Positions 2,391 to 24,852 are shown, numbered from the stretch's first letter. The stretch: 37,186 nucleotides of DNA from an uncultured Chitinophagales bacterium (GCA_964550275.1 CAZJYO010000002.1:1-37186), one strand, 5' to 3'. Program-made: numbers and translations. Notes: generated by a model from the sequence alone, not told the origin.

Positions 2391-2400
2391 CGGCCGGGGT

Positions 2401-2477
2401 ACACAACGACCCCAAGAGAACGGCCTGAGGTACTCCGCCTCGGAACGAACATCATTGTGTGGGCATTGACGAACTAA
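2401..2477 (+). pseudogene. Relic copy of the DUF4159 gene 3' end (direct repeat of nt 702-780)
   Basis: About 80% nucleotide identity to 702-780 with two 1-nt indels. The last 15 codons still read LRLGTNIIVWALTN-stop, against LRFGTNIIVWALTN-stop in the intact gene. Confidence 0.85.
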
Positions 2478-2479
2478 GC

Positions 2480-5400
2480 ATGCAGACGGAACAGACACAC
2501 ATATCTATCCTCACGCGTCTCGCCGCGGCAAGAACGCGCGATATGAAAATTTCCCTGCTCACCGGCGCGCTTCTTTTTCTTGTCATCAGCGGCGTGATGG
2601 TTATCCTTGTGGTCACCCTTGAAGGCGCGCTGCGATTTGGAATCGCGGGACGTACCGCGCTTTTCTGGTCAACGGTTGTTTTATGTATCGCGTTGTTCGG
2701 CTGGCTCGTTGGCGTTCCGCTTCTGCGGTTTCTGAAAATCGTTCCGCAAGAAACCGATGAGCACACGGCGGCCCGCGTCGGTTCACACTTTCCCCACATT
2801 GCCGATCGCTTGCTCAATACGCTTCAACTGTTCCGCGAGCGGAAAAGCACACTCTATTCGCCATCGCTTGTGGATGCCTCCATTGAAGACGCGGACGCGG
2901 ATATGTCCGGCGTGGACTTTTCCGCGTTCGTTGATACGTCACAAGCAAAACGCACGGCGCGCATCTTCGGCATTGTGGGATTCACCGCGCTCGTTCTTAT
3001 CATTGGTTTCCCGTCGGTGTTTGTTGCCTCAGCGCAAAGACTTCTTCATTACGGAGAGGAATTTGCCGAACCCACACCGTTCAGTTTCGCCGTCGAGCCG
3101 GGAAACGCCGAGGTGGTCAAGGGGCAACCGGTAACCATCAATGTCCGCGTTATCGGGGAAACGAAGGAGCCGGTGCGTCTTCTCAGCCGGCCGCGCGGCC
3201 AGGTCACGTTTGACGATCAGATTCTCGAACGATCCACGGGCGCGGCGCTCAAGCACGAGTTTTCTTCCGTCAAATCATCCACCGAGTACTTTGTGCAATC
3301 CGGCGATGTCCGCAGCCCCGAGTTTACCCTTACGGTTCTGGACAGGCCCGCGCTGAAATCATTGCGGCTTTCGCTCCAGTACCCGGCATATACCAAACTT
3401 GCGCCGAGGGAGCTTGACGAAAACATCGGCGACGTCACAGCTTTGAAAGGAACCCGCATTTCCCTCTCGGTTGAATCCAACAAAGAACTCGCGGAAGTCA
3501 TGATTGTCTTCAATGATTCCACCCGGAAAGCTCTGGATGTGAAGGGTGAGCAAGCCTCAGGATCGATCCCGCTTATGCGGGATGGAACCTATCATGTGTA
3601 CATGCGCGATACCGAGGGATTGACGAACGCCGATCCCATCGAGTACACCCTGCGCGTCACCGCGGACGCATTCCCTGCCGCCGAAATCCTTGTGCCCGGT
3701 CCGCATCTTGACATTGCAGGTGAAGCAAGCCTCAACACGCTTTTCAAAATCACGGATGATTTCGGATTCTCACAACTTCGTCTCGCGTACCGCCTGACGC
3801 AGTCGCGCTATGAACGACCGGCGGAAGAATTCACGACGATTGCGGTGCCGCTGGGTGAGCGATCTTCCACCGAAGAACAAATTCCCTACGTGTGGTCGCT
3901 TGAACCATTGCGCCTCGTGCCCGAGGACGTTGTCAGCTATTACATCGAAGTGTTTGATAACGATCGCGTATCCGGTCCAAAATCTGCACGAAGTGCAACC
4001 CATACGCTGCGTCTTCCATCGCTTGATGAGGTCTTTGCCGATCTGGACAGGGGACATGAGACGAGTCTTGAAAGCATGAAGGAAGCGCTTGAGGAAGCAC
4101 AGGAAGCGAAGAAGGATCTGGATGAACTCCAGCAGGACTTGAGAAAAAATCAGCAGAAGATGGACTGGCAGCAACAGCAGAAGGCACAGGAGCTGGCGAA
4201 GAAATACGAAGAGATCCAAAAGAAGCTGGATGATGTCAACGCGACGGTGGACCGGATGACCGCCGAGATGCAGAAGAACCAGGTGCTCTCCAAGGAGACG
4301 ATGGAGAAATACCAGGAATTGCAGCGGATGATGGAGGAAATGAACTCGCCCGAGTTCACGGACGCGCTGAAGAAACTTCAACAGTCCATGCAACAAATGT
4401 CGCCGGAGCAGATGCGACAGGCATTGCAGGAGTTCAAGTTCTCCGAGGAGAACTTCCGGGAAAGTCTGGAGCGCACGATGAACCTGTTGAAGCGCCTGCA
4501 GATCGAGCAAAAAACAGATGAAGTGGTGAAGCGCGCGGAGGAGATCAAGAACACGCAGGAGGAATTGCAGAAGCAAACCGAACAAACGAACCCGCAGGAC
4601 CGTGATGCGCTGGACAAGCTCGCCAAAGAACAGCAGGATCTGAAGGAACAGCTCGAAGCCCTGGAAAAAGAGATGGCGGGACTCGAGAAGAAAATGGAGG
4701 ACTTTCCCTCCGAGATGCCGCTGGAAGAAATGAGCAAGGCAATGGAGGAAATGGAACAGAGCCAGCTCGATCAGCAGATGCAGGAAATAGCGCAACAGCT
4801 CCAGCAGCAACAGATGTCGCAGGCGATGAAAGGCCAGCGCTCTGCAATGCAAAAGATGGGCTCGATGATGCAGCAGCTCCAGCAGATGCAGAAATCCATG
4901 ATGCAGAACCAGCAACAGCAAGTTTTGAATGCGATGCGCAAGTCGTTGGAGGATATGCTGGAGCTTTCAAAGAGACAGGAAGGATTAAAGAAAGAATCCC
5001 AGTCGCTTGATCAGAACTCTGCCCGGTTCCGCGAGAACGCGCAGGAGCAAATGGACATCATGCGCGATCTTTCGTCGGTGACCCAGGGGCTTTCAGAGCT
5101 TTCACAACGCACGTTCAGCATTTCGCCGGACCTGGGGAAGTCCATTGGCGATGCAATGAGACAGATGGATCAGGCGATGCAGTCGTTGCAACAGCGCAAC
5201 GGCAACATGGCCGGACAGCAGCAGGGCGGAGCCATGGCCTCGTTGAACCAGGCGGCAAGCCAACTGCAGGGCTCGATGAATTCCATGATGCAAGGCGGCT
5301 CATCGGGCATGGGTATGGCGGGTTTCATGCAGCGACTCCAGCAGATGTCATCACAGCAACAGGGCATCAACCAGGGGACGCAAAACCTCGGCGGCATGAC

Positions 5401-5857
5401 GCCGCAACAAGCGGCCGAGATGGGCCGGCTTGCGGGAGAACAGGGCATGGTGCGGAAATCTCTTGAGCAGCTTGCGCGTGAAGCCGCGCAAACCGGTGAC
5501 CTGAGCAAGATGCTTGGCGATCTGAACCGCGCCGCACAGGAGATGCGCGAAGTACAAACCGACCTGGCGCAGGGAAATGTCAATCCGGAAACGCTACGCA
5601 AACAGGAACGCATCCTCTCGCGGCTCTTGGATTCCCAGCGCTCCGCGCGTGAACGGGATTTTGAGAAGAAGCGGCTGGCAGAATCAGGGAAGGACGTACG
5701 CCGGACCGGACCACAGGAACTGAACGCCGCCTCACAGGATCGCGACAGACTTCGCCGCGATCTTCTGAAAGCGATGGAAGAAGGATACTCGAAGGACTAT
5801 CAGGATATTATCCGCAAGTATTTTGAAGCGCTTGAACAGGCGGAACCGAATCGGTAA
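2480..5857 (+). CDS. Large membrane-anchored coiled-coil protein with a Q/M/E/K-rich central region (possibly DUF4175-like)
   Basis: ORF 2459..5857. The ATG at 2480 lies 2 nt after the relic DUF4159 stop. There are N-terminal TM helices, a beta-rich region up to about aa 520, then about 500 aa of heptad-like low-complexity sequence (MQKMGSMMQQLQQMQKSMMQNQQQQ). The C-terminus is ...YSKDYQDIIRKYFEALEQ. Confidence 0.75.
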   Translation: MQTEQTHISILTRLAAARTRDMKISLLTGALLFLVISGVMVILVVTLEGALRFGIAGRTALFWSTVVLCIALFGWLVGVPLLRFLKIVPQETDEHTAARVGSHFPHIADRLLNTLQLFRERKSTLYSPSLVDASIEDADADMSGVDFSAFVDTSQAKRTARIFGIVGFTALVLIIGFPSVFVASAQRLLHYGEEFAEPTPFSFAVEPGNAEVVKGQPVTINVRVIGETKEPVRLLSRPRGQVTFDDQILERSTGAALKHEFSSVKSSTEYFVQSGDVRSPEFTLTVLDRPALKSLRLSLQYPAYTKLAPRELDENIGDVTALKGTRISLSVESNKELAEVMIVFNDSTRKALDVKGEQASGSIPLMRDGTYHVYMRDTEGLTNADPIEYTLRVTADAFPAAEILVPGPHLDIAGEASLNTLFKITDDFGFSQLRLAYRLTQSRYERPAEEFTTIAVPLGERSSTEEQIPYVWSLEPLRLVPEDVVSYYIEVFDNDRVSGPKSARSATHTLRLPSLDEVFADLDRGHETSLESMKEALEEAQEAKKDLDELQQDLRKNQQKMDWQQQQKAQELAKKYEEIQKKLDDVNATVDRMTAEMQKNQVLSKETMEKYQELQRMMEEMNSPEFTDALKKLQQSMQQMSPEQMRQALQEFKFSEENFRESLERTMNLLKRLQIEQKTDEVVKRAEEIKNTQEELQKQTEQTNPQDRDALDKLAKEQQDLKEQLEALEKEMAGLEKKMEDFPSEMPLEEMSKAMEEMEQSQLDQQMQEIAQQLQQQQMSQAMKGQRSAMQKMGSMMQQLQQMQKSMMQNQQQQVLNAMRKSLEDMLELSKRQEGLKKESQSLDQNSARFRENAQEQMDIMRDLSSVTQGLSELSQRTFSISPDLGKSIGDAMRQMDQAMQSLQQRNGNMAGQQQGGAMASLNQAASQLQGSMNSMMQGGSSGMGMAGFMQRLQQMSSQQQGINQGTQNLGGMTPQQAAEMGRLAGEQGMVRKSLEQLAREAAQTGDLSKMLGDLNRAAQEMREVQTDLAQGNVNPETLRKQERILSRLLDSQRSARERDFEKKRLAESGKDVRRTGPQELNAASQDRDRLRRDLLKAMEEGYSKDYQDIIRKYFEALEQAEPNR

Positions 5858-5945: not shown

Positions 5946-7118
5946 TTGCGCGCACTCATCAACCGAATTCTCAAAAACCACGAGAGTCACACCCTCGCCG
6001 ATCTCACTCCCGCCGTCTGTACTCATGATCGTATTCAATCGGTTCTTGCCGGACTTGTAAGAAAAAGCAGCGGACTGCTTGCCAGCGAATCTGTGGGCAC
6101 TTCCTTTGAAGGCCGGAGTATCAACCTGGTACGTTGCGGCAACGGGAAAACTCGTGTTCTGCTCTGGTCGCAAATGCACGGCGATGAACCCACCGCCACG
6201 CTCGCGCTGATGGATATTTTCTCTTTGCTCGCGAGCCAGGGAACCCGTTTGTCATACCTTCGAAGTATCCTCGAGAAGTGTACGCTTCTCTTCGTTCCCA
6301 TGTTGAATCCGGATGGCGCCGAAAAGCGCACGCGACGAACAACAACACGCATCGACATGAACCGCGACGCTCGCGCGCTCGTTACACCGGAAGCAAAAAT
6401 CCTCAGAGGCCTTCAGCAGAAATTCAAGCCCGCGTTTGGTTTCAACCTTCATGACCAGGAGCTGAGTTGCGTCGGCGCCACGCCTAAAGTTACAGCCATC
6501 GCGCTCCTCGCCCCTGCACGTGATGTCAAGAAAACCACACCGCCGGTTCGCCGCAAAGCGATTCAAGTTGCATCGTGTATTGCACAGGCATTGTCCCACG
6601 CGGCAAAGGGTCATGTCGCGCGATATAGCGACGCGTTCGAACCCCGCGCGTTCGGTGACAACATGCAGGGCTGGGGAACAAGCACGGTGCTCATCGAATC
6701 CGGTCATTGGCCCGGCGATCCGGAAAAAGTATTTATCCGGCGCTTGAATGTTGTGGCGATTCTTGTTGCTCTCGACTGCATTGCTCGCGGTTCGCTGAAT
6801 CAACTCAACACACAACACTATGACGGTTTGCCGGAGAATGGAAAGAGCATTGTCGATGTGCTCATCCGCAATCTCACCATTCTGCATCCATCGGGAAAAT
6901 CCTTCGCGGCCGATCTTGGTCTCTCTGTCTCCTCGTCGGCGATGTGGAACCGGGGTTTGGACGACGTTGTCATCAAGGAGTTTGGCGATCTCAGCACGTT
7001 TGCGGCATTACACGTTATTGACGGGAAGAACCACGTTGTCCGCTTGGGCGACATTCATATCGATCAGACCATAAAGAAAGACGAGCTTCAGGAAATTCTC
7101 CGGGTAGCCCTTCCTTGA
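5946..7118 (+). CDS. M14-family zinc carboxypeptidase-like protein
   Basis: LLWSQMHGDEPTAT (HxxE zinc motif), FVPMLNPDGAE and IDMNRD. The start is TTG and is uncertain. Confidence 0.75.
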   Translation: MRALINRILKNHESHTLADLTPAVCTHDRIQSVLAGLVRKSSGLLASESVGTSFEGRSINLVRCGNGKTRVLLWSQMHGDEPTATLALMDIFSLLASQGTRLSYLRSILEKCTLLFVPMLNPDGAEKRTRRTTTRIDMNRDARALVTPEAKILRGLQQKFKPAFGFNLHDQELSCVGATPKVTAIALLAPARDVKKTTPPVRRKAIQVASCIAQALSHAAKGHVARYSDAFEPRAFGDNMQGWGTSTVLIESGHWPGDPEKVFIRRLNVVAILVALDCIARGSLNQLNTQHYDGLPENGKSIVDVLIRNLTILHPSGKSFAADLGLSVSSSAMWNRGLDDVVIKEFGDLSTFAALHVIDGKNHVVRLGDIHIDQTIKKDELQEILRVALP

Positions 7119-7143
7119 TATTCCTTCGTGATAGTTGTACATT
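7115..7143 (+). promoter_or_regulatory. Sigma70-like promoter TTGATA-17-TACATT upstream of the ECF sigma gene
   Basis: -35 at 7115-7120, 17-nt spacer, -10 at 7138-7143, about 28 nt before the ATG at 7171. Confidence 0.45.
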
Positions 7144-7170
7144 TCTTCTGTCCCCGAAACCACAAAACCC

Positions 7171-7737
7171 ATGCCCTCAGCAGTAAATCCCAAAGAACAG
7201 GAGTTCAAGCAGGAAGCGCTTCCGCACATGGACGTGCTGTATAACTTTGCCCTGCGCATGACCAATAATGCGGCAGATGCCGAAGACCTGCTTCAGGAGA
7301 CGTATCTTAAGGCATTTCGCTTCTGGGACAAGTATGAACGGGGAACCAACATCCGCGCATGGTTGTTTCGAATCATGAAGAACTCGTATATCAACCGCTA
7401 CCGGAAGGAGTCCAAAGAGCCGGAAACGGTGGATTATGACGAGGTTCAGAATATTTACGCTCCACGGGCTGGCGGGGCCGACGAGAATGATCTTCAGAAG
7501 AGTCTCTTCGGCAACTTGCTTGAAGATGATGTTGCAATGGCGATCGCCGGACTGCCGGAGGAATTCAGGACGGTGGTAATCCTGTGCGACATTGAGGGAT
7601 TGACGTACGAAGAGATTGCCGAGTTTCTCGATATACCGCTCGGTACGGTGCGTTCACGGTTGCACCGCGGAAGAAAGTTGCTCCGCTCGAAACTGATGAA
7701 GTTCGCGCGCGACAAAGGGTATGTGACAGAAGACTAA
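7171..7737 (+). CDS. ECF-type RNA polymerase sigma-70 family factor
   Basis: Region 2 (DAEDLLQETYLKAFRFWDKY...WLFRIMKNSYINRYRK) and region 4 (LPEEFRTVVILCDIEGLTYEEIAEFLDIPLGTVRSRLHRGRKLL). The ORF track starts at TTG 7135. Confidence 0.9.
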   Translation: MPSAVNPKEQEFKQEALPHMDVLYNFALRMTNNAADAEDLLQETYLKAFRFWDKYERGTNIRAWLFRIMKNSYINRYRKESKEPETVDYDEVQNIYAPRAGGADENDLQKSLFGNLLEDDVAMAIAGLPEEFRTVVILCDIEGLTYEEIAEFLDIPLGTVRSRLHRGRKLLRSKLMKFARDKGYVTED

Positions 7738-7777
7738 CACCGGGAACCAATACATGCACATTCGATAAAGGATCGTT

Positions 7778-8620
7778 GTGGATTGCAAAGAATTTCAAGA
7801 GCATGTAACACCGGCGGTTGACAAGCGCCTGACCGGTGAAAAGATGAAGGAGTTCTCGCGGCACGCGGAGCAATGTTCTCCTTGCCGCGCCGAGTATGAA
7901 CTGGAATCCATGACCAGTTCGTTTGTCCGCACACGCCTTCCGATGTCTCCCACACCCGCGCACGTTGCCGCAAGAATTGTTGGCCAAGCGACAGCCCGCC
8001 CGCCAGCAACCCAACCGGAAGCTGCAAGCATGATTCGACGGATTGTGGACTCGATCTATTTCCGGCCGGCGCTCGCGTTTGCCGCCGGCTGTGTCGGCGT
8101 GATCCTTCTTCTGCAACAGCCCGAGCCACACTCAGTAAGCACTGCGTCCCTTGTCCCCGGCAATATCATTCACCAGTCACTGGCAAACTACACAAGAGTA
8201 GCCAACGGCGAGATCATCACTCCGCAATCCCCCGACCAACAGGAAGTCCTTGCGGGGTACAATGGAGGCAAGACGACATTTCCCGTTGTCGTTCCGCGCC
8301 TGAAGAAGTGTGAGCTGCTTGGCGGCACACTGAAAGAGTATGCAGGGCTCACCATGGCGCACTTCGCCTACAAGCATGATACCGGCATCGTGTACGTGTA
8401 TGAGGCATGCTGGAAGGAAGTGCAAAAGGGAGAGAAGATCATGCTTCCCGCCGAGGCGCTGGAAACGCTGAAATCCACCGGATGGTATGCAGAGTCGCAG
8501 CCCAACGGCTGTTCGATTGTTCTCTGGACCAAGAACGACAAGACGCTGTGCTCGGCGGTTTCACGCATGCCCAAGGACGAACTGCTCGCGTATGTTTCTT
8601 CGGTGAACGAAGCGCCCTAA
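7778..8620 (+). CDS. Anti-sigma factor, zf-HC2 (ZAS) type, single-pass membrane protein
   Basis: GTG start with AAGGA 5 nt upstream. H-x3-C-x2-C motif HAEQCSPC at aa 29-36, a TM helix at about aa 95-112, and an unassigned C-terminal domain of about 168 aa. Confidence 0.75.
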   Translation: MDCKEFQEHVTPAVDKRLTGEKMKEFSRHAEQCSPCRAEYELESMTSSFVRTRLPMSPTPAHVAARIVGQATARPPATQPEAASMIRRIVDSIYFRPALAFAAGCVGVILLLQQPEPHSVSTASLVPGNIIHQSLANYTRVANGEIITPQSPDQQEVLAGYNGGKTTFPVVVPRLKKCELLGGTLKEYAGLTMAHFAYKHDTGIVYVYEACWKEVQKGEKIMLPAEALETLKSTGWYAESQPNGCSIVLWTKNDKTLCSAVSRMPKDELLAYVSSVNEAP

Positions 8621-14061: not shown

Positions 14062-15085
14062 AATGCGCAATAGTCTTGTTGCTGCTCTGTTGATTTCAAC
14101 CAACGCTGTGGCGGGAACGGGCGTTGCGAAATATGCCGGCGAATTTATGTCGCTCGGCGTCGGCGGCCGGGCTCTCGGAATGGGTGGAGCGTATGTTGCC
14201 CTCGCAAACGATGTCACTGCCGGCTACTGGAATCCCGCAGGACTCGCCTTCATCACGTACCCCCAAATCGCGCTCATGCATGACGAGCAGTTCGGTAGTC
14301 TCGTGAACTATGACTACGGCGCGGCCGCCATGCCCCTCGGTTCCTCTTCCAGTCTCGGTCTCAGCGTGATGCGTCTCGGCGTTGATGATATTCCCGACAC
14401 GCGCAACGCGGGCGTTGATATCAACGGCAACGTCACACACGATCCCAATGAGTTCAGCCGGATTGACCCGAACCGCGTAACCTATTTCAACGCGGCGGAT
14501 TGGGCGTTTTATCTCACCTATGCAAAGAAAGCGTCGGATGAGTTTTCCTACGGTGCGAACGTAAAGCTCATTAGGCGCGACCTTGGGGATAATGGGGCGA
14601 CGGGTGTCGGCTTTGACGTCGGCCTTTGGTACACGCCGATGGAAAATCTCCTGCTCGGTGCAAATGTCCAGGATGTTACCACAACATTCCTCGCGTGGGA
14701 CACAGGAACGAATGAACTCATTTCTCCCACAATGAAAGTCGGCTCAGCATATCTCATTGATGCGTGGGAAGGAAGGTTTGCACCTGCGCTTGATTTTGAT
14801 ATACGGTTTGAAAACAGACAATACGCCTCCACGTTTAATCTTGGTCCCGTGAGTTTCGACATGCACGCGGGACTTGAGTACCAGCTTCGCGATCTTGTTG
14901 CGCTTCGTGTCGGTTACAGCGACGTGAAGCAAGTAACCTTGGGAGCCGGACTTCACCTTCCCAAGTTGAACATCGACTATTCCTTTGCCAAGTTTGACGG
15001 CATCGATCAGCTTGGCAGTACGCACCGCATTTCCCTCATGTTTACTCTCGAGGCCGAGCAATTCAAGCGCGTCCCCGAACAGTAA
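14062..15085 (+). CDS. PorV/PorQ family outer-membrane beta-barrel protein (T9SS-associated family)
   Basis: GEFMSLGVGGRALGMGGAYVALANDVTAGYWNPAGLA is the family signature. The signal peptide is MRNSLVAALLISTNAVAG. GGAG lies 7 nt upstream of the ATG at 14062. The ORF track starts at GTG 14036. Confidence 0.8.
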
Positions 15086-15603
15086 TCCTTCGCGCCACAT
15101 TCTGCTGTTTCCTCCTCGGCCTTGCCGGCTGTTCAAGCTCGTCGCATGTTGCCGAGTACCCTCTTTTTGAACCATATTACACTGCCAACGAGAACGCGTT
15201 TGAATACCGGTTGCCGCAGGGCTGGCTGGATGCTTCCACCTCCGATACCACCAGCGCGTACGCAATATTTCTCGTGCGTCACGACTACGCGGCCTCTCTT
15301 GCCATTCATGAAATCAAACTGGATGAAACTTCGCGGCAAGAACTGCTGAGAGGTGGCACCGAGACGATGTCGGGGCTGGTCGGCTCACTGCACGGAGAAC
15401 AGAAAGGTGGGGAAGAGGTGGATATCGGAGGCGTTCACGGAATAGCATTTGAACCGCAACGCGATTCGCGCGAATACAAAACTCGTGTTGTTGTTTTTGC
15501 GGTGGGTGACCGGTTGTTTGAATCAACTGCGATGGCGAAACCGGGAACCGAAGAGGAAACGTTCGGCGTGCAAAGTGCGGTGTTGCAAGCGATTCGCTGG
15601 TAG
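15061..15603 (+). CDS. Hypothetical lipoprotein with an apparent non-canonical start (ATT 15061 or ATC 15085)
   Basis: The frame is open from 14998. The track starts only at TTG 15211, but the upstream codons encode ...ILRATFCCFLLGLAGCSSS, a signal peptide plus LAGC lipobox. GAGG at 15050-15053 lies 7 nt before the ATT. Confidence 0.55.
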   Translation: MQARPRTVILRATFCCFLLGLAGCSSSSHVAEYPLFEPYYTANENAFEYRLPQGWLDASTSDTTSAYAIFLVRHDYAASLAIHEIKLDETSRQELLRGGTETMSGLVGSLHGEQKGGEEVDIGGVHGIAFEPQRDSREYKTRVVVFAVGDRLFESTAMAKPGTEEETFGVQSAVLQAIRW

Positions 15604-17805
15604 CTACTTTGTTTCCATCACGAAAACGCCGTTCCAATCAGAGGGAGGCGGCTCCTGCTCATACTGCGCGGAACGCTGGATATACAACTGCGCTACCCGA
15701 TCGTACGGGTGCATCGTTCTGATTTCTTCGAACATTCTACGGGCAAGCTCCCACTCTCTCTTCCGATACAGACCAAGTGCTTGATGGAATTGTTCTATTC
15801 TTTTCTCGTGGACAGGGATATCCATCTCTCTGCGGTCATACATCAGTTCGTACACACGCAAGACCTCTGATCGTCCCTTCACGGCAACAAGATCAATTTC
15901 TCTTGCGAGAATTCTGTCCTTCACAAGTTCGTGTGTTCGTTCGCTGACGAGTATTCCCGTCCCGTACATTTTGTTTGCTCCCTCAAGGCGCGATGCAAGG
16001 TTCACGCTGTCGCCTATGACTGTGTAATCAAACTTGCCGACAGCTCCGAGGTTTCCCACAACCATTTCGCCGGAGTTGATGCCGATTCTCACATTCAGGG
16101 TAATGTTGCGGCGCGCATGCCATTCAGCGCGCAGCTCCTGCACGGCCCGTTGCATATGAAGCGCCGCAAGACATGCGCGCAACGCGTGGTCGTTCTGAGG
16201 AATCGGCGCGCCCCAAAACGCCATAATGGCGTCGCCTTCATACTTGTCCAGCGTCCCGTGATGCTGGAAAACAATTTCCGTCATGGTGCTGAGATATTCA
16301 TTGAGAAGCCCGACCAATTCCTCCGGCGGCATGCCCTCTGAAAAAGTGGTAAATCCCTCAATGTCGCTGAACAATGCCGTAAGTTCCTTGCGCTCACCCC
16401 CCAGCTTTAGTTTTTCCGGATGACTGATGAGTTCATCCACAACGGAAGGATGGACATACGTGCTGAACATGGTCTTGATCAGCATACGCTGTTTGCGTTC
16501 GACGACGAAGTGATAGGCCGTGCTCGCACCATATCCGGCGACGATTGCCATTGCCGGCGCGACAACGCTCACCAGGTAGCTGTATTTATTGAACATGACG
16601 AGAGCGAGATAACCGATGATGAACACTTCGGCCGTTGCAAAAAGAAAGCCGTTCAACTCCACCATCACGTGATGTTTCGTGGTTGAACTCTTGAATGCAG
16701 AAGTCACCAGAAACGTGAGAATAGTGAGGAAGATGATTGCCGCTATTTCGGTTGTGGTGGATTGCTTGGTGATAAATTGGTCGCGCAGCACGCTTTCGAT
16801 GAGATTCGCGTGGATTTCCACGCCGTACATGAGGTTATCGCCTTCCTGCTGGCCGCGCGCAAAGGCCACCGGGAAGAGATCATGGTCTTCGGGGACCGTC
16901 GAGCCGATAAGCACAATTTTTCCGGCAAACGTGCTGTCATGAAGCAGTCCGAAGTCGGGATCGCTGAAGGTGTTGATTTCTTCCCCGGTTTCCGCCTCCT
17001 CGTTGGTGATGCACTGTTCATCATCGATTACGTCAACGAACTTAATGCGACGAAATGTTCTGTCCGGTCCGAAGAAGTTGATAGGCATGGATGCAGGATC
17101 ATACTTGGGAATCTCGCGGTCTGCAAAGATGAATTCACCTGAGGAGTTCTCGGCCGTGGTCAGCGCCGGAAACCCGAAGTATTTATTGAGAATGGCGAAA
17201 CCAAACGTTGGGACTCTCAGTCCGGTGTTCGTGCCGAAGAACGGACTGTAACGCCGGTACACACCGTCCGCATCGTTGCGGATGTTGACCAGGCCAATCG
17301 CACTATCGACATCAAAAAAGATATTGCCGAAATTTTCCGTGGAGGTTGTGTGCATGTACAGATCGTGCAGGACCTCTGTTTTCCCGGCGAGGACGGCAAT
17401 GCCTGTTTCGCGGATGGCCGCGCGCAAGGAGTCATCGTTCGCGTGCGCATACACGTCGTTGCCGCCAAGAATCAGATCGAGCCCGACGACGCGCGCGCCG
17501 GCCGCGTGCAAGTTGCGAACCGCATGCGCGTAATATGAGCGCGGCCACGGCCACTTTGCCGGAAGCGATTTGAAGGATTCTTCGGAGATCTCCACGATGA
17601 TGACACTGGCGGAATCCTTGAAGGCAGGATCGGTGCCCCGGGACGCGAAGCGATAGTCAATGGATGCAAGCTCCATCCGTTGGACGATGCCGAGCTTGAG
17701 AATACTCTCTTGCGTCAGAAGAATGACGAGAAGGGAAACACCAAGCGCGAGGGCGACCTTTATTTTCCAGCCGTGTGTTATGCGTCCCGGCCAAGCTGTT
17801 GCCAT
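15604..17805 (-). CDS. CHASE2 sensor domain-containing class III adenylate/guanylate cyclase
   Basis: N-terminal TM helix, CHASE2 (IIVEISEESF...WPWPRSYYAHAVRNLHAAGARVVGLDLIL) and three TM helices. The cyclase core is TALFSDIEGFT...LDKYEGDAIMAFWGAP...RIGINSGEMVVGNLG. The C-terminal tail is TPR-like. Confidence 0.9.
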   Translation of the reverse strand: MATAWPGRITHGWKIKVALALGVSLLVILLTQESILKLGIVQRMELASIDYRFASRGTDPAFKDSASVIIVEISEESFKSLPAKWPWPRSYYAHAVRNLHAAGARVVGLDLILGGNDVYAHANDDSLRAAIRETGIAVLAGKTEVLHDLYMHTTSTENFGNIFFDVDSAIGLVNIRNDADGVYRRYSPFFGTNTGLRVPTFGFAILNKYFGFPALTTAENSSGEFIFADREIPKYDPASMPINFFGPDRTFRRIKFVDVIDDEQCITNEEAETGEEINTFSDPDFGLLHDSTFAGKIVLIGSTVPEDHDLFPVAFARGQQEGDNLMYGVEIHANLIESVLRDQFITKQSTTTEIAAIIFLTILTFLVTSAFKSSTTKHHVMVELNGFLFATAEVFIIGYLALVMFNKYSYLVSVVAPAMAIVAGYGASTAYHFVVERKQRMLIKTMFSTYVHPSVVDELISHPEKLKLGGERKELTALFSDIEGFTTFSEGMPPEELVGLLNEYLSTMTEIVFQHHGTLDKYEGDAIMAFWGAPIPQNDHALRACLAALHMQRAVQELRAEWHARRNITLNVRIGINSGEMVVGNLGAVGKFDYTVIGDSVNLASRLEGANKMYGTGILVSERTHELVKDRILAREIDLVAVKGRSEVLRVYELMYDRREMDIPVHEKRIEQFHQALGLYRKREWELARRMFEEIRTMHPYDRVAQLYIQRSAQYEQEPPPSDWNGVFVMETK

Positions 17806-17817
17806 TGTGGGATCCGC

Positions 17818-20220
17818 CTAGATTCCGTAACGGAGCCGGGTGCTCCAGATAACGTCCGATGAACCGCCGTCCACCCGGTAGTAGCTGAAGTCGAAGAGGA
17901 TGGTAACAGCCTGCATGACCATCCATTCGGTTCCAAACATGATGAGGAGCCGGTCGAAATCGCCGAACGTGGGCGCAAGGGAACCTGAAACAGCAATGAG
18001 GTCAGGCACAATGCCGTACCGTCCGTAAAAGGATAATGTCGTGTAGTCGAATGTGTAGGGAATCTCGTTCAGGTTGAGACTGAAATCGAGTCGAGTTTGC
18101 AGCGGGAAGTCAAACTGTGTTGCAACACCGATCCCGAACGTGTTGTTCTTGATATCAATTTCCCGTACGGAACGATCATCGCGCACGGACGCCGAGTAGC
18201 TTGCATTCACCAGATGGTTCGCCCCATACCTGAATCCATAGGAGGTTTGCAGGAACAGTTTGTTCGTTCTCTCATCAACAACGATGGGATCGGAAAGAGG
18301 AAGATCGTTGTCGTTGGCAAAATATGAGTACCCCGCGGTGAATCCCGGGAACGTCCCGCGCGGATAATAGCTGATGGAAGTGTTGATCGTCGAATACGTG
18401 GTCGTTGCCTGTTTGGTCGCGCTCGTGTTATCGTTCAGCCGTTCATATCCCAGCGTCAGGAACACCTGGTTGTCCACCAGCCGGAGGCGGTCAACAATGT
18501 TGAATCCCTTGATATCCCTTCGCAGGAAGGTCTGTCCGAAAGAATTATATTCAGCCCCGCGGTAGAGATACGTTGCGCGGAACGAGTTTTCTGTCGCATC
18601 CACGGCCACCCCGGTTTCGTAAGCAATGGTCGCCAGTTTCTTCAGTGAAAGCGGACGCAGATTGTCGTTGACAGTGATAAAACCATCCAGAATATCCCGC
18701 GTTCTTTTTATCTCATCGGCGTCATTGGGATACACCGAGTCGATGTATGCGTCCGTGAATGTTCCGCTGGAAATATCCGAGTTGAACGCGCTGAACGCTC
18801 CCTGGCCGAAAAGCTCGACGGTGTTCATAATTCTTGCCGAGAAGTCCGTTCCCAAAACGATATTCTCCTGCGGGCGCACGCCATATTGGATTGAACTCAT
18901 TTCGTCACCCGAGGAAAGCCACGTCAATCCCCAATGCCATTTGCCGGGGTTGCCGACACTCGGACGGATGGCGAAGAGTTTTCTTTCAAATGTTCCATAG
19001 TTGTACTTTCCCCATGTGGTGGCGTCGATGGGTGCATACGCGGCATTCGGATCGCGCTGTTGTTCAATGGCAAGAGTGTCCACGCCGATGACTTCGACGA
19101 GATCACCTTCGACTCCGCGTGCGGTTTGTCCCAAGGTCATGTCAAGGTTGAACGCGCCAAGCATCAAAGTTGAATGGGCACCCCTGACGCGTTTGCCGCT
19201 CAGGACAAGATTGGGAAAAATCGGAAACCCGTCGCCGAACGCCGCCTTCAGCCAGGAGGACTCCACGCCGATATAGTATCTGTTTTGCGGCTGGACATTC
19301 GGGGATTCATCCGACGTAATAAAGAGGTTTGAACGAAGAAGCCAATCTCCCTGATCGGCTTCCACCGCGACTCCGCCGCGGTTATACCACGTTCCCAAGC
19401 CGCCGATACGCTCGAAGCGCGATTCGAGCTGAACGCTCGCGTTTGTGCGCCATGCATCGGCGCCGAGTTGGTCGTTGAACTCCGCAGCGGTTGTGGAAAA
19501 TACGAGACTTGCGCTTCCCGCGTCTTTTCCCTCGTTGTTGAACAGCAGAACCGTAACGACATGCTGGCCCGGTGAGAGCTGGATCGAGAGGTTCGCGGGC
19601 ACACAGGTAATGACGTCCTCGCTGAACACCGCGCCATTGGTGATATCCGTCCCATCCAGAAGGATTCGCGTCGCCCTGAGATTGATGCTTGAGTCAACAC
19701 GCAACAATGAAATCGAGACGACCAGTTCATCTTCAGGGACACTGCTGTATGGGTCGGGACTTAAAAAAAGAACGGATGATTCCGGCGGAGAGTCGGAACC
19801 AATTGCCGTCTGCAGTGTTTTTTGCGGCGGATTCCTGAAAGGGTCGGTTCCCTGGTCAAGCGGATACGCTTCCAGCGAACCGCCGCGCGTTTCCAGGACA
19901 AGGTAGTACTCTACGAAAGGCGGCCTGACAACCGGCGGAGGAATAACTCCGCGGGCGGTATTGCCGCGTAAATCCATTTCCGTGCGCGTGTACTCACTTT
20001 CGTCGAATGGCCGGTACAACAACGTAACAGCGTCGTAGCTTTCCCCGTTGAGCAATGTTGCTGTGATCAGAATTGGCGAGCCGGCGGGAGCCGTTGCCGG
20101 TGCATCGACGATAATGTTTGAAGGAACCTGGGCGTTGAGATTATAGAAAGCCGGGTCCGTGAAAAAAAGAATGGTGCCGGCGAACAGGCACGCGCGCGCT
20201 ATGCGGAAGGGGAGTGTCAT
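17818..20220 (-). CDS. Large exported protein, predicted outer-membrane beta-barrel with an N-terminal Ig-like region (unassigned family)
   Basis: 800 aa with a signal peptide (…FFTDPAFYNLNAQ). The C-terminal two-thirds have alternating-hydrophobic, G/Y/N/D/S-rich composition typical of barrels. It ends 12 nt before the cyclase start. Confidence 0.6.
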   Translation of the reverse strand: MTLPFRIARACLFAGTILFFTDPAFYNLNAQVPSNIIVDAPATAPAGSPILITATLLNGESYDAVTLLYRPFDESEYTRTEMDLRGNTARGVIPPPVVRPPFVEYYLVLETRGGSLEAYPLDQGTDPFRNPPQKTLQTAIGSDSPPESSVLFLSPDPYSSVPEDELVVSISLLRVDSSINLRATRILLDGTDITNGAVFSEDVITCVPANLSIQLSPGQHVVTVLLFNNEGKDAGSASLVFSTTAAEFNDQLGADAWRTNASVQLESRFERIGGLGTWYNRGGVAVEADQGDWLLRSNLFITSDESPNVQPQNRYYIGVESSWLKAAFGDGFPIFPNLVLSGKRVRGAHSTLMLGAFNLDMTLGQTARGVEGDLVEVIGVDTLAIEQQRDPNAAYAPIDATTWGKYNYGTFERKLFAIRPSVGNPGKWHWGLTWLSSGDEMSSIQYGVRPQENIVLGTDFSARIMNTVELFGQGAFSAFNSDISSGTFTDAYIDSVYPNDADEIKRTRDILDGFITVNDNLRPLSLKKLATIAYETGVAVDATENSFRATYLYRGAEYNSFGQTFLRRDIKGFNIVDRLRLVDNQVFLTLGYERLNDNTSATKQATTTYSTINTSISYYPRGTFPGFTAGYSYFANDNDLPLSDPIVVDERTNKLFLQTSYGFRYGANHLVNASYSASVRDDRSVREIDIKNNTFGIGVATQFDFPLQTRLDFSLNLNEIPYTFDYTTLSFYGRYGIVPDLIAVSGSLAPTFGDFDRLLIMFGTEWMVMQAVTILFDFSYYRVDGGSSDVIWSTRLRYGI

Positions 20221-20246
20221 GTCAGGGGATCATGAATTCGTCACAT

Positions 20247-20282
20247 ACACAAAGGCCCCGTAGAAACCTGATCCACAGGGCC
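20247..20282 (-). terminator. Possible weak intrinsic terminator/attenuator between the FecR-domain gene and the barrel gene
   Basis: On the minus strand, ggccctgt-N13-acggggcc forms an 8-bp stem including one G-U pair, followed by tttgtgt. Confidence 0.3.
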
Positions 20283-20334
20283 AACTGCGTCAGCACAGTG
20301 GTGCATGTGCATTCATTCGCATGGGTTCATTGTC

Positions 20335-21042
20335 TTACTTGTAATCGATTCTCAGTTCTTTTCTATTCCCCCGTCCGTCCCGAAATTCAAATTCCAGTTT
20401 GTTGTCCTGCTCCGATTTCCGCGCGCTTTGCATCGCTTCCGCCCGCTCTTCTTCTGTCGAAGGCCTGCTTTCGATTGTTCCATCCGGCCGCGAAATTGCC
20501 GTAAAGCCGGCGCGCACTTCAACAGATTGCGATGAGCGCTGATTGGTGAACTCCACGATCCCCTCGGTGACGATAAGCGTGTCGGAGTCCTCGTGCGCAG
20601 TGAACTTTCCACCGGTCCCCCGAATGGACGCAACTGATGTCGGCGACGTAAACCGGAATTCCTCATCCTGTTTCTGCTTCTGGATGTTGAACCCGACAGC
20701 CCCCTTCTGGACATTCACCGACTTGGAAAACGCGCTGTTCTTGCTTTCACCGGTGACCGTCAACTCGGATTGTTCGCGGACACGGACGAGACTGTTGTCC
20801 TTGAATTTTACCACTGCCACCGACTTGGAACCAGTCTTGACCCTGTCGCCCGATGAAAGGGTTTCGCCGCGCTCGGCCTTTGTCCAATCCCGGTCAACCT
20901 CTTTGTGCTGGACGTCCAGAATCACCTTGCTGACGACAGCCACCGCGGGCCCGGGCGGCACGGCGAAGGTCGTGGTTGCAAACGCCAAAAGCAAAAGAAT
21001 AAGCATCGTCGATTTCATAGGCATGCTCGCTTTCCGGATCAT
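20335..21042 (-). CDS. FecR domain-containing exported protein
   Basis: Signal peptide, then ETLSSGDRVKTGSKSVAVVKFKDNSLVRVREQSELTV (FecR-type beta-sandwich signature). The start overlaps the upstream stop as ATGA. Confidence 0.75.
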   Translation of the reverse strand: MIRKASMPMKSTMLILLLLAFATTTFAVPPGPAVAVVSKVILDVQHKEVDRDWTKAERGETLSSGDRVKTGSKSVAVVKFKDNSLVRVREQSELTVTGESKNSAFSKSVNVQKGAVGFNIQKQKQDEEFRFTSPTSVASIRGTGGKFTAHEDSDTLIVTEGIVEFTNQRSSQSVEVRAGFTAISRPDGTIESRPSTEEERAEAMQSARKSEQDNKLEFEFRDGRGNRKELRIDYK

Positions 21043-22133
21043 TCAAGAACAACAGATGAAATGGTACCGGGGATATCGCGCAACTGCTGAAGGATCGTAA
21101 TTGCCTCGGCGCGGGAAATCGTGGAGCCGTTTAACTGAATAGCGGACGACGTAACCTGGCTGGTACGCAGTTCGTCAATCAAGTGTTTGTAGTCCGGGCC
21201 AAGAACGCGCTCAAGTTCATCCAGAAACTCGTTTGTGGTCTGGGTGTCATCACCGCTGCCGCTACGCACAAGGGTGAACGAACGAATCTCACTCCGGAAC
21301 GGGCGCTGGATACCGCCGGCTTCCACCGGCAACCCTTCAACATACCACACGTAGGTCTGGTTCGACTCAAGGAGCCGCGACCCTGTGCCGGGATATTGAT
21401 AGAGCTGTTCCCGGGTTACAGCTGTGAAATAGGGTACGCCGGACGCCGCTTCCTCGTTGCTTGTTTGCCCGGGCAACCGTTGGAAAATCGAAAGACGCCA
21501 TTCGGGCGCGTCGCCTCTCCATTGAAACACCGGAAACTCGGTCACCAGAGATTCACCGGTGTTGGGAAAAAGAAGATCAATGGAAGAGGGATTCGTCAAT
21601 TCGAGCTGGAACTCGTGGCGCGTAGGTTCACGACCGTCATCGGGGCGCACTTCAAGCGAGAAACGATACATACCTGCCGGCAACAAACCGCTTGGCAAGG
21701 CAATCTCTTCAAGCCGCCGCTTGTGGGCCTCGTTGACAACGTAGTTCCGAGCGAATGCCGGATCTTTCAAATCAAAATTTGTAATGGTGCGCTGTCCGGG
21801 GATGGAAAACGGAGCTGTCTGCAACCCCACGATGCCGGGGAGCTCCTCGCCGGTGGCCAGGGAGATATCAATGCGCATCAGCATGATAGCGTTAACAATG
21901 CTCTGTCCCTCGGTGCTCATGGTGATCGTGAAGATCCACTTGGGGGTTGTCGAGTGGACAAAATCTACGTCGTTTACCGAGTGCGTTTGCGCTGGAGTGG
22001 TTGCCGATTGAACCTGGACAGGAAGCTGGGCTGAGGCCGGAAGCGTTAGCCCGAAGAAAAGCGCGCACAGAAGGGGAAGACGCCAGGAATGGCCGATTGG
22101 CACACAAGTTCTCATCACATCACCTTTCATCAT
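21039..22133 (-). CDS. Exported hypothetical protein (no recognisable family)
   Basis: 364 aa with signal peptide ...LCALFFGLTLPASAQ. Contains an FPVFQW...YVWYV pattern resembling Ig/Fn3-like modules. The exact start is uncertain because there are several N-terminal Met codons. Confidence 0.6.
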   Translation of the reverse strand: MMKGDVMRTCVPIGHSWRLPLLCALFFGLTLPASAQLPVQVQSATTPAQTHSVNDVDFVHSTTPKWIFTITMSTEGQSIVNAIMLMRIDISLATGEELPGIVGLQTAPFSIPGQRTITNFDLKDPAFARNYVVNEAHKRRLEEIALPSGLLPAGMYRFSLEVRPDDGREPTRHEFQLELTNPSSIDLLFPNTGESLVTEFPVFQWRGDAPEWRLSIFQRLPGQTSNEEAASGVPYFTAVTREQLYQYPGTGSRLLESNQTYVWYVEGLPVEAGGIQRPFRSEIRSFTLVRSGSGDDTQTTNEFLDELERVLGPDYKHLIDELRTSQVTSSAIQLNGSTISRAEAITILQQLRDIPGTISSVVLE

Positions 22134-22236: not shown

Positions 22237-23553
22237 CTAGAAATTCACAATGTCATTATAGACGACAAAGACCATGAACGCTATAAGGAGGGCAAAACCT
22301 ACCTTCTGCAGTCCCATTTTTACCTTTACCGGAATTTCCCTTCGGAAGATCCCTTCGTAGACAAGAAACAGGAGGTGGCCGCCGTCGAGAGCAGGGAACG
22401 GGAGGATATTCAACATTGCAAGACTGATACTGAGGAGTGCCATGAAACCAAGATAAGTGATGATGCCAAGTTCGGCGGTTTGTGTTGCCATTTGCGCGAT
22501 CTTAATCGGTCCGCCGACGGATTGCGCGAAGGCAACCCTGCCGGTGATGAGTTGTTTCATTTGATCAACAAACAAACCGATGGCTCCGGCGATGTCGCGG
22601 ACGCCTTTCGGAAATGCCTCCCACAGGGAGTATTGAATTTGGGTTACCGGTCCGTTGTAACGCGGACCGAACGCGATACCAATTCTGCCGTCCTCTGTCG
22701 GCGTCGTTGTTCCGCTCATGGTTGTGTCGTTGCGTCGCCACTCAACAAGCAATGGTTTTCCCGCGCTCGACTTGACAATTTCGCGAAGCTTGAGGTCAAA
22801 CTTCACCTGCATTCCGTTCAGGGAAAGAATGACGTCGTTGGGCTTGAGTCCGAGTTGGTCCGCCGGCTTGCCCGGCTCCACCGTGCTGACGACGATCTCC
22901 GTGTTAACGGGGATGATGCCGAATGCTGTTTCGGTCGGTTCCGGAATGGATGTTCTGGGTATATGGATCGACGTATCGCGTTCACCGCGCTGAACAACAA
23001 ACTGCAAATCATCGCCGAGGTGATCGACGTACACAAGAGTAAGGATATGATCCCAGTGAAGTGCCGGTGAACCATTGATGCTTTGAACGCGATCGCCTGC
23101 CGCCAATCCCCCCAGCGCGGCCGGACTTCCTTCGGCCACGTAACCAATTTCCGTTGTCTCGCGAATGGTTGTGCCCTGAACGTAATTGATACCCCAGAAG
23201 ATGCCGATGGCAAGAAGGATGTTCATAATAACACCAGCCGAGATAACGATCATGCGTTGCCAGATTGGCTTCGATCTGAACTCCCACGGCTCCGGCGGCT
23301 TTGCAAGGTATTCTGTGTCAAAACTCTCGTCAATCATTCCAGCGATCTTGACGTATCCTCCGATGGGAATCCAGGAGATGCAATAGTCCGTTTCGCCGAT
23401 TTGCTTGCCGAATGCACGCGGAGGGAACCCGATGGAAAACCGGTCCACGCGCATACGAAACATCTTTGCCGCAAGGAAGTGGCCAAGCTCGTGGACGAAC
23501 ACCAGGACGCCAAGCGTGACGATGAAATAGAATATCGTTTCCAGAATTTGCAT
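22237..23553 (-). CDS. rseP: RIP (site-2) zinc metalloprotease RseP
   Basis: HELGHFLAAKMF (HExxH), PDZ region, and a C-terminal ILNILPFPALDGGHL motif. Confidence 0.95.
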   Translation of the reverse strand: MQILETIFYFIVTLGVLVFVHELGHFLAAKMFRMRVDRFSIGFPPRAFGKQIGETDYCISWIPIGGYVKIAGMIDESFDTEYLAKPPEPWEFRSKPIWQRMIVISAGVIMNILLAIGIFWGINYVQGTTIRETTEIGYVAEGSPAALGGLAAGDRVQSINGSPALHWDHILTLVYVDHLGDDLQFVVQRGERDTSIHIPRTSIPEPTETAFGIIPVNTEIVVSTVEPGKPADQLGLKPNDVILSLNGMQVKFDLKLREIVKSSAGKPLLVEWRRNDTTMSGTTTPTEDGRIGIAFGPRYNGPVTQIQYSLWEAFPKGVRDIAGAIGLFVDQMKQLITGRVAFAQSVGGPIKIAQMATQTAELGIITYLGFMALLSISLAMLNILPFPALDGGHLLFLVYEGIFRREIPVKVKMGLQKVGFALLIAFMVFVVYNDIVNF

Positions 23554-23561
23554 GAGTGAAA

Positions 23562-24767
23562 TCAGGATAAGTGCGTGGATGCGAGTTGATGCCCGACTCG
23601 TGCCCGCGTATCACGATCGACGCGGATAATGTCTTCGAGGGTCGGGGAAGAAATTGATGAATGCGTCAACAGTGCTTCTTCAATAAATGCCGGTATTGCC
23701 GTGAAAGGAGTTTTCCCGTCGAGGAACATCTGCACGGCGATTTCATTTGCCGCGTTGAGTACCACGGGGGCAGTCCCGCCCGTATTCAACGCCATGTACG
23801 CGAGCGGGAGACAGCGGAATCGGTCCAAGTCCGGCGGATGAAAGGTCAATTCACTCGAAGCAGAAAAATCCATTCTTCTCACTGACGAAGCAGGCCGATC
23901 GGGATACAACAAGGCATATTGAATAGGAAGCCGCATATCAGGAATTCCCATCTGTGCCTTGATGGAACCATCTTCAAATTCCACCATTGAATGAATGATC
24001 GATTGCGGATGAATGACAACATCAATCCCCGCCGGCGGAAGATCAAAAAGCCAGTGTGCTTCCATGACCTCGAGCCCCTTGTTCATCATCGTCGCCGAGT
24101 CAATAGTGATTTTGTTTCCCATGTTCCACGTCGGATGATTCAGCGCCTGGGCAACCGTTACCGTCTCGAGGTGTTCCTGTTGCAGATTGAGAAACGGCCC
24201 CCCCGAGGCGGTGAGGATAATCCGCCGGATGGCAGAGGCGTCCTCTCCGCGCAAGCATTGCAGAATTGCACTGTGTTCGCTGTCGATGGGAAGAAGTGAA
24301 ACGCCGTGCTTTTTCGCTGTACGCGTAACAAGCTCTCCGGCGACAACAAGTGTTTCCTTGTTCGCCAGGGCGATATCTTTTCCGGCTTCCATTGCGGCAA
24401 TGGTCGGTCTGAGCCCGGCGAACCCAACGAGCGCGTTCAGTACAACGTCAACATCTTTTCTTTGGACGATTTCCACCAATCCTTCAACGCCAACGAGGAC
24501 TTCCACGCTTCCGTTGATCATGGGGCGGAGAAGAGACGCGCTTGCGGCATCGGCGACAACAACGCCACAGGGCTCGAACCGTTGTATCTGTTCACACAGC
24601 AAGGGAATGTTCTTGTGGGCGGTAAGGTACGTAACCCGCAGTCTTTCCGGGAAAGCTGCAATCACGTCCAAACTGCTTCTGCCAATAGAGCCGGTGGAGC
24701 CAAGTAGAGCTATGTTGCGAGTGGAGATCAGAGGTCCTTGAGTCGGGTTGTGGGTTGAAAAACGCAC
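23562..24767 (-). CDS. dxr: 1-deoxy-D-xylulose 5-phosphate reductoisomerase
   Basis: IALLGSTGSIGRSSLDV, LANKETLV and NAANEIAV. The ORF extends to ATG 24845, but GTG 24767 gives a normal-length N-terminus. The start is uncertain. Confidence 0.93.
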   Translation of the reverse strand: MRFSTHNPTQGPLISTRNIALLGSTGSIGRSSLDVIAAFPERLRVTYLTAHKNIPLLCEQIQRFEPCGVVVADAASASLLRPMINGSVEVLVGVEGLVEIVQRKDVDVVLNALVGFAGLRPTIAAMEAGKDIALANKETLVVAGELVTRTAKKHGVSLLPIDSEHSAILQCLRGEDASAIRRIILTASGGPFLNLQQEHLETVTVAQALNHPTWNMGNKITIDSATMMNKGLEVMEAHWLFDLPPAGIDVVIHPQSIIHSMVEFEDGSIKAQMGIPDMRLPIQYALLYPDRPASSVRRMDFSASSELTFHPPDLDRFRCLPLAYMALNTGGTAPVVLNAANEIAVQMFLDGKTPFTAIPAFIEEALLTHSSISSPTLEDIIRVDRDTRARVGHQLASTHLS

Positions 24768-24823
24768 GTATGGTTGTATCAAGGTATGGAAACACGCTAT
24801 CCTTCGCAAGGACGAAGCCGCGG

Positions 24824-24852
24824 TTGAACCCCGCACGTATTTCATTTATATT
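24824..24852 (+). promoter_or_regulatory. Sigma70-like promoter TTGAAC-17-TATATT for the TPR gene
   Basis: -35 at 24824-24829, 17-nt spacer, -10 at 24847-24852, about 50 nt upstream of the ATG at 24904. Confidence 0.5.

Follow-up and report, generated by a model that had tools for sequence, protein, structure and literature searches.

The analysis described here concerns positions 15604-22133, on the minus strand, of a 37,186-nucleotide (nt) stretch of DNA from an uncultured Chitinophagales bacterium; the whole stretch is referred to below as the window. Four open reading frames (ORFs), designated genes A to D, lie here in the order A-B-C-D, read 5' to 3' on the minus strand. Gene A (21039-22133) was called as an ORF for an exported protein of 364 amino acids (aa) belonging to no named family. 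Gene B (20335-21042) encodes a secreted protein of 235 aa with a Pfam FecR domain, gene C (17818-20220) a protein of 800 aa, also of no named family, for which AlphaFold2 predicts a beta-barrel, and gene D (15604-17805) an inner-membrane protein of 733 aa in which Pfam recognizes CHASE2 and class III cyclase domains. The ATG of gene B overlaps the stop codon of gene A as ATGA (21039-21042), genes B and C are separated by 114 nt, and genes C and D by 12 nt. These four ORFs, the overlap and both spacers lie exactly where a preliminary description of this DNA had placed them. From the evidence given below, we consider it probable that the four genes form a signalling cassette that spans the envelope, is conserved in FCB-group bacteria and leads from an outer-membrane module to cyclic AMP (cAMP).

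Gene D was examined for its domain content and for the integrity of its catalytic site. The predicted protein matches Pfam CHASE2 (1.6e-49, 169 bits) and Guanylate_cyc (3.5e-26, 92 bits). It begins with a first transmembrane helix (approximately residues 14-33) and continues with the periplasmic CHASE2 region (26-364), a hydrophobic block (approximately 365-445) consistent with three further predicted transmembrane helices, the cyclase domain (473-648) and a helical tail of 75 aa. This is the arrangement of CHASE2, multiple transmembrane segments and class III cyclase originally described, except that the tail had been called TPR-like; it has no Pfam match in the window protein, and orthologues show only faint or weak similarity to TPR_2. 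The closest solved relative of the cyclase domain is Pseudomonas aeruginosa CyaB (3r5g, 2.3e-42). The catalytic set is complete (D481, D525, K521, T595, R573, N602 and R606), and all seven residues are identical in the cyclases of four distant Marinimicrobia cassettes, described below. Among class III cyclases, residues equivalent to D481 and D525 hold the metal, those equivalent to K521 and T595 set base specificity, and the Asn and Arg residues act on the transition state; Lys together with Thr or Ser is the adenylate pattern, as opposed to Glu and Cys in guanylate cyclases. Because of its Lys/Thr pair (K521/T595), D is predicted to be an adenylate cyclase of class IIIb-like type, with cAMP as its output.

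The only domain found in B is FecR (PF04773, 1.7e-11, residues 66-164), the domain assigned to this protein at the outset. Against the NCBIfam FecR equivalog B scores 15.7 bits, far below the cutoff of 385. Its sole hydrophobic segment (residues 9-32) resembles a signal peptide, and neither an anti-sigma domain nor a transmembrane helix was found by Pfam and NCBIfam searches and a scan for hydrophobic segments. Since the sole hydrophobic segment is N-terminal, B appears to be a secreted FecR-domain protein and not an anti-sigma factor. Much longer FecR proteins, of 520-530 aa, are encoded in two related loci that have no CHASE2 gene (L055, 6391-7983, and L056, 6416-7978), and the L055 protein bears DUF5666 repeats. 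The greater length hints that extra domains may take the place of a different partner, or connect to one, in these loci.

No match to C exists in Pfam or NCBIfam, and its full-length relatives, at least 262 in number, are all annotated as hypothetical. The family is nevertheless large: a profile search of 1.84 billion cluster representatives recovered 2112 clusters (at 50% identity) with E<=1e-3, extending down to approximately 25% identity. An AlphaFold2 model based on an alignment of 40 relatives has a mean predicted local distance difference test score (pLDDT) of 81.5, and most of the barrel part lies between 85 and 94. In this model, the N-terminal part of the protein (encoded by 19489-20220) comprises a signal peptide (residues 1-30) and two Ig-like beta-sandwich domains (approximately 36-141 and 151-244), which are presumed to be periplasmic. 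The C-terminal part (17818-19449, residues 258-800) is modelled as an outer-membrane beta-barrel, in an unbroken series of about 26 long antiparallel strands that extends from residue 258 to the C-terminus. The Ig-like domains run straight into the barrel without a plug, and no Plug, STN or TonB_dep_Rec match was found with Pfam at E<=0.1. When the model was compared with the PDB using Foldseek, the only structures matched were large outer-membrane barrels, namely the FimD/PapC ushers, MtrB and TonB-dependent transporters, at 8-10% identity; the best TM-scores were those of MtrB (0.43/0.52). AlphaFold2 and Foldseek thus agree with the initial view of C as a protein with a signal peptide, an Ig-like N-terminal third and a barrel-like C-terminal two-thirds.

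Two more specific identities were considered for the barrel and rejected. Assignment as a chaperone-usher or MtrB-type barrel would depend on likeness at the level of the fold, at the low identity given above, and there is no Usher or MtrB match in Pfam. No chaperone, pilin or decahaem cytochrome partner genes were found in any locus looked at (the window, L001-L003 and L055-L060). The position of the gene downstream of dxr-rseP suggested BamA/Omp85 as a second candidate, as bamA often comes after dxr-rseP in many bacteria. However, C has no POTRA or Omp85 (Bac_surface_Ag) match, and its N-terminal domains are modelled as all-beta sandwiches, not as POTRA domains; what follows dxr-rseP in the window is a large barrel gene cluster unrelated to bamA.

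Gene A was correctly recognized from the start as encoding an exported protein of unnamed family, but its length of 364 aa is probably too great. The ATG at 22115 is the likely start, because 40 orthologues invariably begin with the residue equivalent to Met7 of the listed protein; the product would then have 358 aa. All 41 homologues are annotated as hypothetical. No match to A was found in Pfam or NCBIfam, nor to its sub-domains at E<=10, and sequence searches likewise matched none of A, B and C to a solved structure. The AlphaFold2 model of A (pLDDT 83.6) consists of a signal peptide, two beta-sandwiches (approximately residues 39-179 and 186-288) and a small helical domain (296-353), the C-terminal module having a predicted alpha-alpha-beta-beta-alpha pattern, which may be STN-like. 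Foldseek, which with structure prediction had been proposed as a check on both A and C, returned a membrane barrel for C, as described above, and for A generic tandem Ig/FnIII folds only, such as transglutaminase C-terminal domains and RbmA, with no functional lead. A and C share one feature of processing: an invariant Gln directly follows the predicted signal-peptidase site (A-x-A, then Q), Q36 in A and Q31 in C, with cleavage of C predicted before Gln31, which is invariant in 40 sequences. An N-terminal Gln after cleavage is typical of exported Bacteroidota proteins.

The distribution of the four genes was then determined by several searches. A scan of one genome per species gave 43 loci, all of them in metagenome-assembled genomes labelled Ignavibacteria or Bacteroidota. 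The order A-B-C-D was found in every locus of sufficient length, both among these 43 and in L001-L003. These Ignavibacteria-type loci alone prove little, because the flanking genes are equally syntenic. More distant relatives were therefore of greater interest, and a profile built from 23 divergent members of the C family retrieved proteins of Marinimicrobia. Four loci of this type (L057-L060) have the arrangement of a gene for a protein of 384-408 aa without a Pfam domain, a FecR gene, a gene for a barrel of 903-1036 aa, and a gene for a CHASE2 and cyclase protein. Homology of the first gene product to A extends over the full length (hhalign probability 99.8%, E 2e-28). Identity between the window proteins and their Marinimicrobia counterparts is 30-34% for B, 21-29% over nearly the full length for C, and 28-31% over the full length for D. 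The neighbours of these cassettes are unlike those in the window and include HicAB, a response-regulator-PglZ gene, tsaE and others. In four of the six distant loci that were looked up (L055-L060), D directly follows C, and the stop-start overlap of A and B is present in both lineages (the window, L055, L056, L058 and L060). A metagenome scan seeded with the A family added 50 further loci, in which A, B and C occur in order wherever the sequence suffices. Twenty of these extend past C; D comes directly after C in 15 of them, no D is present in four, and one is ambiguous.

Because the same four families occur in the same order in Marinimicrobia-type loci with unrelated flanks, a functional link explains the arrangement better than mere synteny. 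The comparative evidence thus indicates that the four genes are a functionally linked unit kept across two phylum-level lineages, the Ignavibacteria type and Marinimicrobia. That they form a unit had been part of the preliminary description, and the co-occurrence of these families beside CHASE2 genes in other genomes, in the metagenome loci as well as in L057-L060, bears this out. As a separate observation, locus L086 has an A-B-C triad without a CHASE2 gene, and 1.6 kb downstream of it (6498-7838) a gene for a 446-aa protein of unusual architecture, in which 2Fe-2S ferredoxin, class III cyclase and Rieske domains are fused.

The association of FecR with CHASE2 is not confined to these bacteria. 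A tblastn search of plasmids with the CHASE2 region gave 98 records, and seven of the proteobacterial plasmid loci examined could be interpreted; in six of these a FecR-domain gene lies directly upstream of the CHASE2 gene. The genera concerned are Methylocystis, Eleftheria, Leisingera, Phyllobacterium and Ruegeria, together with Sinorhizobium meliloti. The Methylocystis locus encodes a 1221-aa protein with FecR and TPR domains, the gene for which overlaps the cyclase gene; that of Eleftheria encodes a response regulator, a LysM-FecR protein and a CHASE2 histidine kinase; and in Leisingera, Phyllobacterium and Ruegeria a CHASE2 cyclase gene comes after the gene for a small FecR protein. On S. 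meliloti pSymB, the sequence directly upstream of cyaK encodes FecR and TPR domains and then a TonB-receptor-like barrel, which together are nsrA. It should be noted that in strain R11 (L047) nsrA reads as two ORFs, one for FecR and TPR (2271-4436) and one for the TonB-receptor-like barrel (4895-5821), with approximately 460 nt between them that hold no listed ORF of at least 150 aa; the gene looks interrupted, or there is an artefact of assembly or annotation.

NsrA is an outer-membrane protein of about 1200 aa, of which residues 600-1200 form a barrel (PMC7529298, PMC13001267). Together with CyaK or CyaD1/D2 it is needed for perception of the proteinaceous plant signal uL2 and for the cAMP-Clr response (PMC7529298, PMC13001267). 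Like this system, the cassette combines an inner-membrane CHASE2 class III adenylate cyclase with a FecR domain and an outer-membrane barrel, the coding sequences of which lie immediately 5' to that of the cyclase. D is approximately 31% identical to CyaK, and the catalytic Lys plus Ser/Thr pattern is common to both. There are also distinct differences. NsrA is a single FecR-TPR-barrel polypeptide, whereas B and C are products of separate genes with no TPR linker, no TPR having been found in either with Pfam. The NsrA barrel matches Pfam TonB_dep_Rec_b-barrel (4.3e-8), C matches nothing, and C in addition bears two N-terminal Ig-like domains. Comparison of the C family with the 1221-aa NsrA-like protein of Methylocystis gave no homology (hhalign probability 0.8%), and the resemblance to NsrA is therefore architectural only. 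Finally, no equivalent of A is present in the part of the cyaK upstream sequence that was examined, and the host of the cassette is an FCB-group bacterium rather than a rhizobium.

Other published systems share parts of this arrangement. A gene cluster of Campylobacterota encodes a CHASE2 adenylate cyclase and a phosphodiesterase together with a TPR protein and an outer-membrane protein that bears a FecR domain, and its members were proposed from comparative genomics to act in one signalling pathway (PMC9239204). Compared by description, this cluster has in common with the cassette a CHASE2 adenylate cyclase grouped with a FecR-domain envelope protein, but in place of its phosphodiesterase and TPR protein the cassette has A and a separate large barrel. 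Operons for a response regulator, a LysM-FecR protein and a CHASE2 histidine kinase are present in Burkholderia ('BiofilmReg') and in P. aeruginosa (PMC5192318). Here too the gene for a secreted FecR protein comes just before that for a CHASE2 sensor, and the two overlap or lie close together; however, signalling leads to a histidine kinase and response regulator, the FecR protein bears a LysM peptidoglycan-binding domain, and there is no barrel gene. The novelty claimed for the locus in the preliminary description was accordingly overstated, since adjacency of FecR and CHASE2 has been published for the histidine kinases of Burkholderia and Pseudomonas (PMC5192318), and NsrA combines FecR, TPR and barrel beside cyaK. 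Systems in which an outer-membrane/FecR module feeds a CHASE2 cyclase are already known. The new element is the architecture: the FecR domain and the barrel are separate genes, the barrel bears Ig-like domains and has no detectable sequence relationship to an NsrA-like protein, there is an additional partner, A, and the system occurs in two FCB-group lineages.

A relay from the surface or periplasm to a cyclic nucleotide is the most reasonable reading of these genes, because D is an intact CHASE2 cyclase. The gene order and its conservation, the domain content, the predicted folds, the adenylate-type catalytic set and the FecR-CHASE2 pairing on which it draws are all observed or computed. For the protein contacts, the direction of signalling and the cue, we infer what follows from NsrA-CyaK and from the general pairing of FecR with CHASE2. 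C would be the outer-membrane component, and its two Ig-like domains at the N-terminus would project into the periplasm. A and B would be secreted, translationally coupled periplasmic proteins, probably acting as a pair, and the FecR domain of B would serve as an adaptor touching the periplasmic CHASE2 domain of D. A change of state at the outer-membrane module, either the binding of a surface or periplasmic cue or an altered occupancy of the barrel, would pass through B, possibly with A, to CHASE2. The resulting change in CHASE2 conformation would switch the dimeric class IIIb cyclase domain of D and so alter the level of cAMP in the cytoplasm, where a receptor, presumably encoded outside the window, would respond to it. 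In this way the cassette would work like NsrA-CyaK of S. meliloti, as a split variant with four components. The relay to a cyclic nucleotide envisaged in the preliminary description is upheld to the extent that the unit is linked, the barrel and intact cyclase are present and NsrA-CyaK provides a precedent; its label of Fec family is not, as discussed below.

Several observations weigh against this reading. One is found in the spacer between B and C. A GC-rich hairpin (20254-20282, minus strand), with a stem of 11 bp that includes seven G-C pairs, is followed by a weak, U-poor tract. A scan for perfect stems detected a hairpin in 16 of 37 orthologous B-C spacers besides that of the window, and RNAfold predicted bulged equivalents in several more, which brings the share of spacers with such a hairpin to roughly half. 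The letters of the stem vary, with compensatory changes, and tails of T7-8 follow it in L026, L028 and L032; the hairpin is not present where the spacer is only 21-33 nt. This element may be a partial terminator, an attenuator or an RNA-stabilizing element inside the operon. A partial terminator would give higher expression of A and B than of C and D, and a conserved terminator-like hairpin may split the cassette into two transcription units, although it does not show that the genes lie on unrelated transcripts. A scan for sigma-70 promoters was at background (seven sites compared with 5.5 expected), and as the consensus may not apply to this lineage, no promoter was assigned.

The remaining points on this side concern the surroundings of the cassette and the nature of the barrel. 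The flanks of the Ignavibacteria-type loci, dxr-rseP upstream and PorV-dnaX downstream, are as conserved as the cassette itself. A, B and C occur without an adjacent D in L055, L056, L067/L068, L093 and L094, and the genes after the triad in L067 and L094 are ordinary housekeeping genes; at the genomic level, at least, A-B-C triads that lack D can therefore occur. Neither a cAMP receptor nor a phosphodiesterase was found in the window. In addition, the structures closest to the model of C are those of barrels with a translocating or sheathing function (ushers and MtrB), not those of dedicated receptors.

The triads without D and the structural matches of C favour a different role, in which A, B and C would be primarily a device for outer-membrane transport, secretion or surface assembly. 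The barrel would house or pass a partner such as A, and the CHASE2 cyclase would be an add-on that monitors this machine or the envelope rather than an external ligand. The leading Foldseek matches of C, the FimD/PapC ushers and MtrB with the TM-scores already given, agree with such a role, as do the triads that lack D and are followed in two loci by housekeeping genes. The tandem Ig/FnIII-like structure of A, which is also that of many surface and matrix proteins (for example RbmA), points the same way. However, the structural likeness is generic (8-10% identity, TM-scores of 0.3-0.5) and is equal for TonB-dependent receptors, and the cassette contains no chaperone, pilin, cytochrome or ATPase genes. 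D also follows C in 15 of 20 metagenome loci, four of six distant loci and all Ignavibacteria-type loci, and the FecR-CHASE2 pairing is a general one that in S. meliloti serves the perception of a signal (PMC7529298). On balance, we regard a transport or assembly device as rather unlikely, although it is the main rival reading.

Genuine Fec-type signalling, with a TonB-dependent transducer, a FecR anti-sigma factor and an extracytoplasmic function (ECF) sigma factor, and with the cyclase merely adjacent, is very improbable. As in FecA-FecR-FecI, the cassette has a periplasmic FecR domain (PF04773) between an outer-membrane barrel and an inner-membrane transducer, and an ECF sigma/zf-HC2 pair does occur in the window (7135-8620). 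Nevertheless, C has no Plug, STN or TonB_dep_Rec match at the threshold given above; B has a signal peptide only, lacks the anti-sigma and transmembrane part and scores far below the cutoff for the FecR equivalog; and no ECF sigma gene was found within or next to A-D in the window, L001-L003 or L055-L060. The nearest is the pair just mentioned, which lies on the opposite strand at a distance of about 7 kb, with Lon, dnaX and PorV in between, and does not occur in the Marinimicrobia cassettes. Strict Fec-type signalling is excluded because these three defining features fail, and the output predicted for the cassette is cAMP. The term 'Fec-style', applied to the locus in the preliminary description, therefore does not hold as a statement of family membership. 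Equally improbable is that the four genes are neighbours through inherited synteny alone, with no functional connection: the whole dxr-rseP-A-B-C-D / PorV-dnaX block is indeed syntenic in the Ignavibacteria-type lineage, but the same families stand in the same order at 21-34% identity between unrelated flanks in Marinimicrobia-type loci, A and B overlap translationally, and the FecR-CHASE2 pairing recurs in Proteobacteria.

The neighbouring genes were located as follows. Upstream of the cassette and on the same strand are dxr and rseP (22237-24845, minus strand), and downstream on the opposite strand are a gene of the PorV/PorQ family and then dnaX. A small plus-strand ORF (15082-15603) converges on the stop codon of gene D. 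About half of the related loci have a counterpart, at 24-71% identity, and Pfam gives no match for this ORF. The frame 5' to its listed TTG start (15211) reads ...FCCFLLGLAGCSSS, a lipobox of lipoprotein type, with no canonical start codon ahead of it. The ECF sigma gene (Sigma70_r2/r4_2, 7135-7737) is followed on the plus strand by genes for a zf-HC2 anti-sigma factor and an FkbM-type methyltransferase (7135-8620), upstream of lon. The ECF sigma/zf-HC2 pair is syntenic in the close relative L001 and is not a member of the cassette.

CHASE2 is a widespread extracytoplasmic sensor domain without a defined ligand. FecR had been linked to CHASE2 before, in Burkholderiales, P. aeruginosa and Campylobacterota, and two FCB-group lineages are added here. 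The pattern points to a general rule in which the input to CHASE2 would come from a FecR-type partner in the periplasm, and this partner would often be linked to an outer-membrane protein. A bolder extension, less likely than not, is that A-B-C may represent an unrecognised family of FCB outer-membrane complexes, in which a barrel of about 26 strands, bearing Ig-like domains on its periplasmic side, is joined by two dedicated periplasmic partners and serves with them as a modular surface sensor, and that CHASE2 domains more generally may be receivers for FecR-domain partners that relay outer-membrane events, and not sensors of small ligands. If true, this would account for the lack of a defined ligand of CHASE2. 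The work also defines two sizeable unnamed families, A and C, which could receive domain models and a provisional functional context. Because the cassette divides into single polypeptides what NsrA fuses, the contacts between B and CHASE2, B and C, and A and B can each be tested individually. The cassette thus offers a clean system, open to dissection, in which to ask what it is that CHASE2 domains sense.

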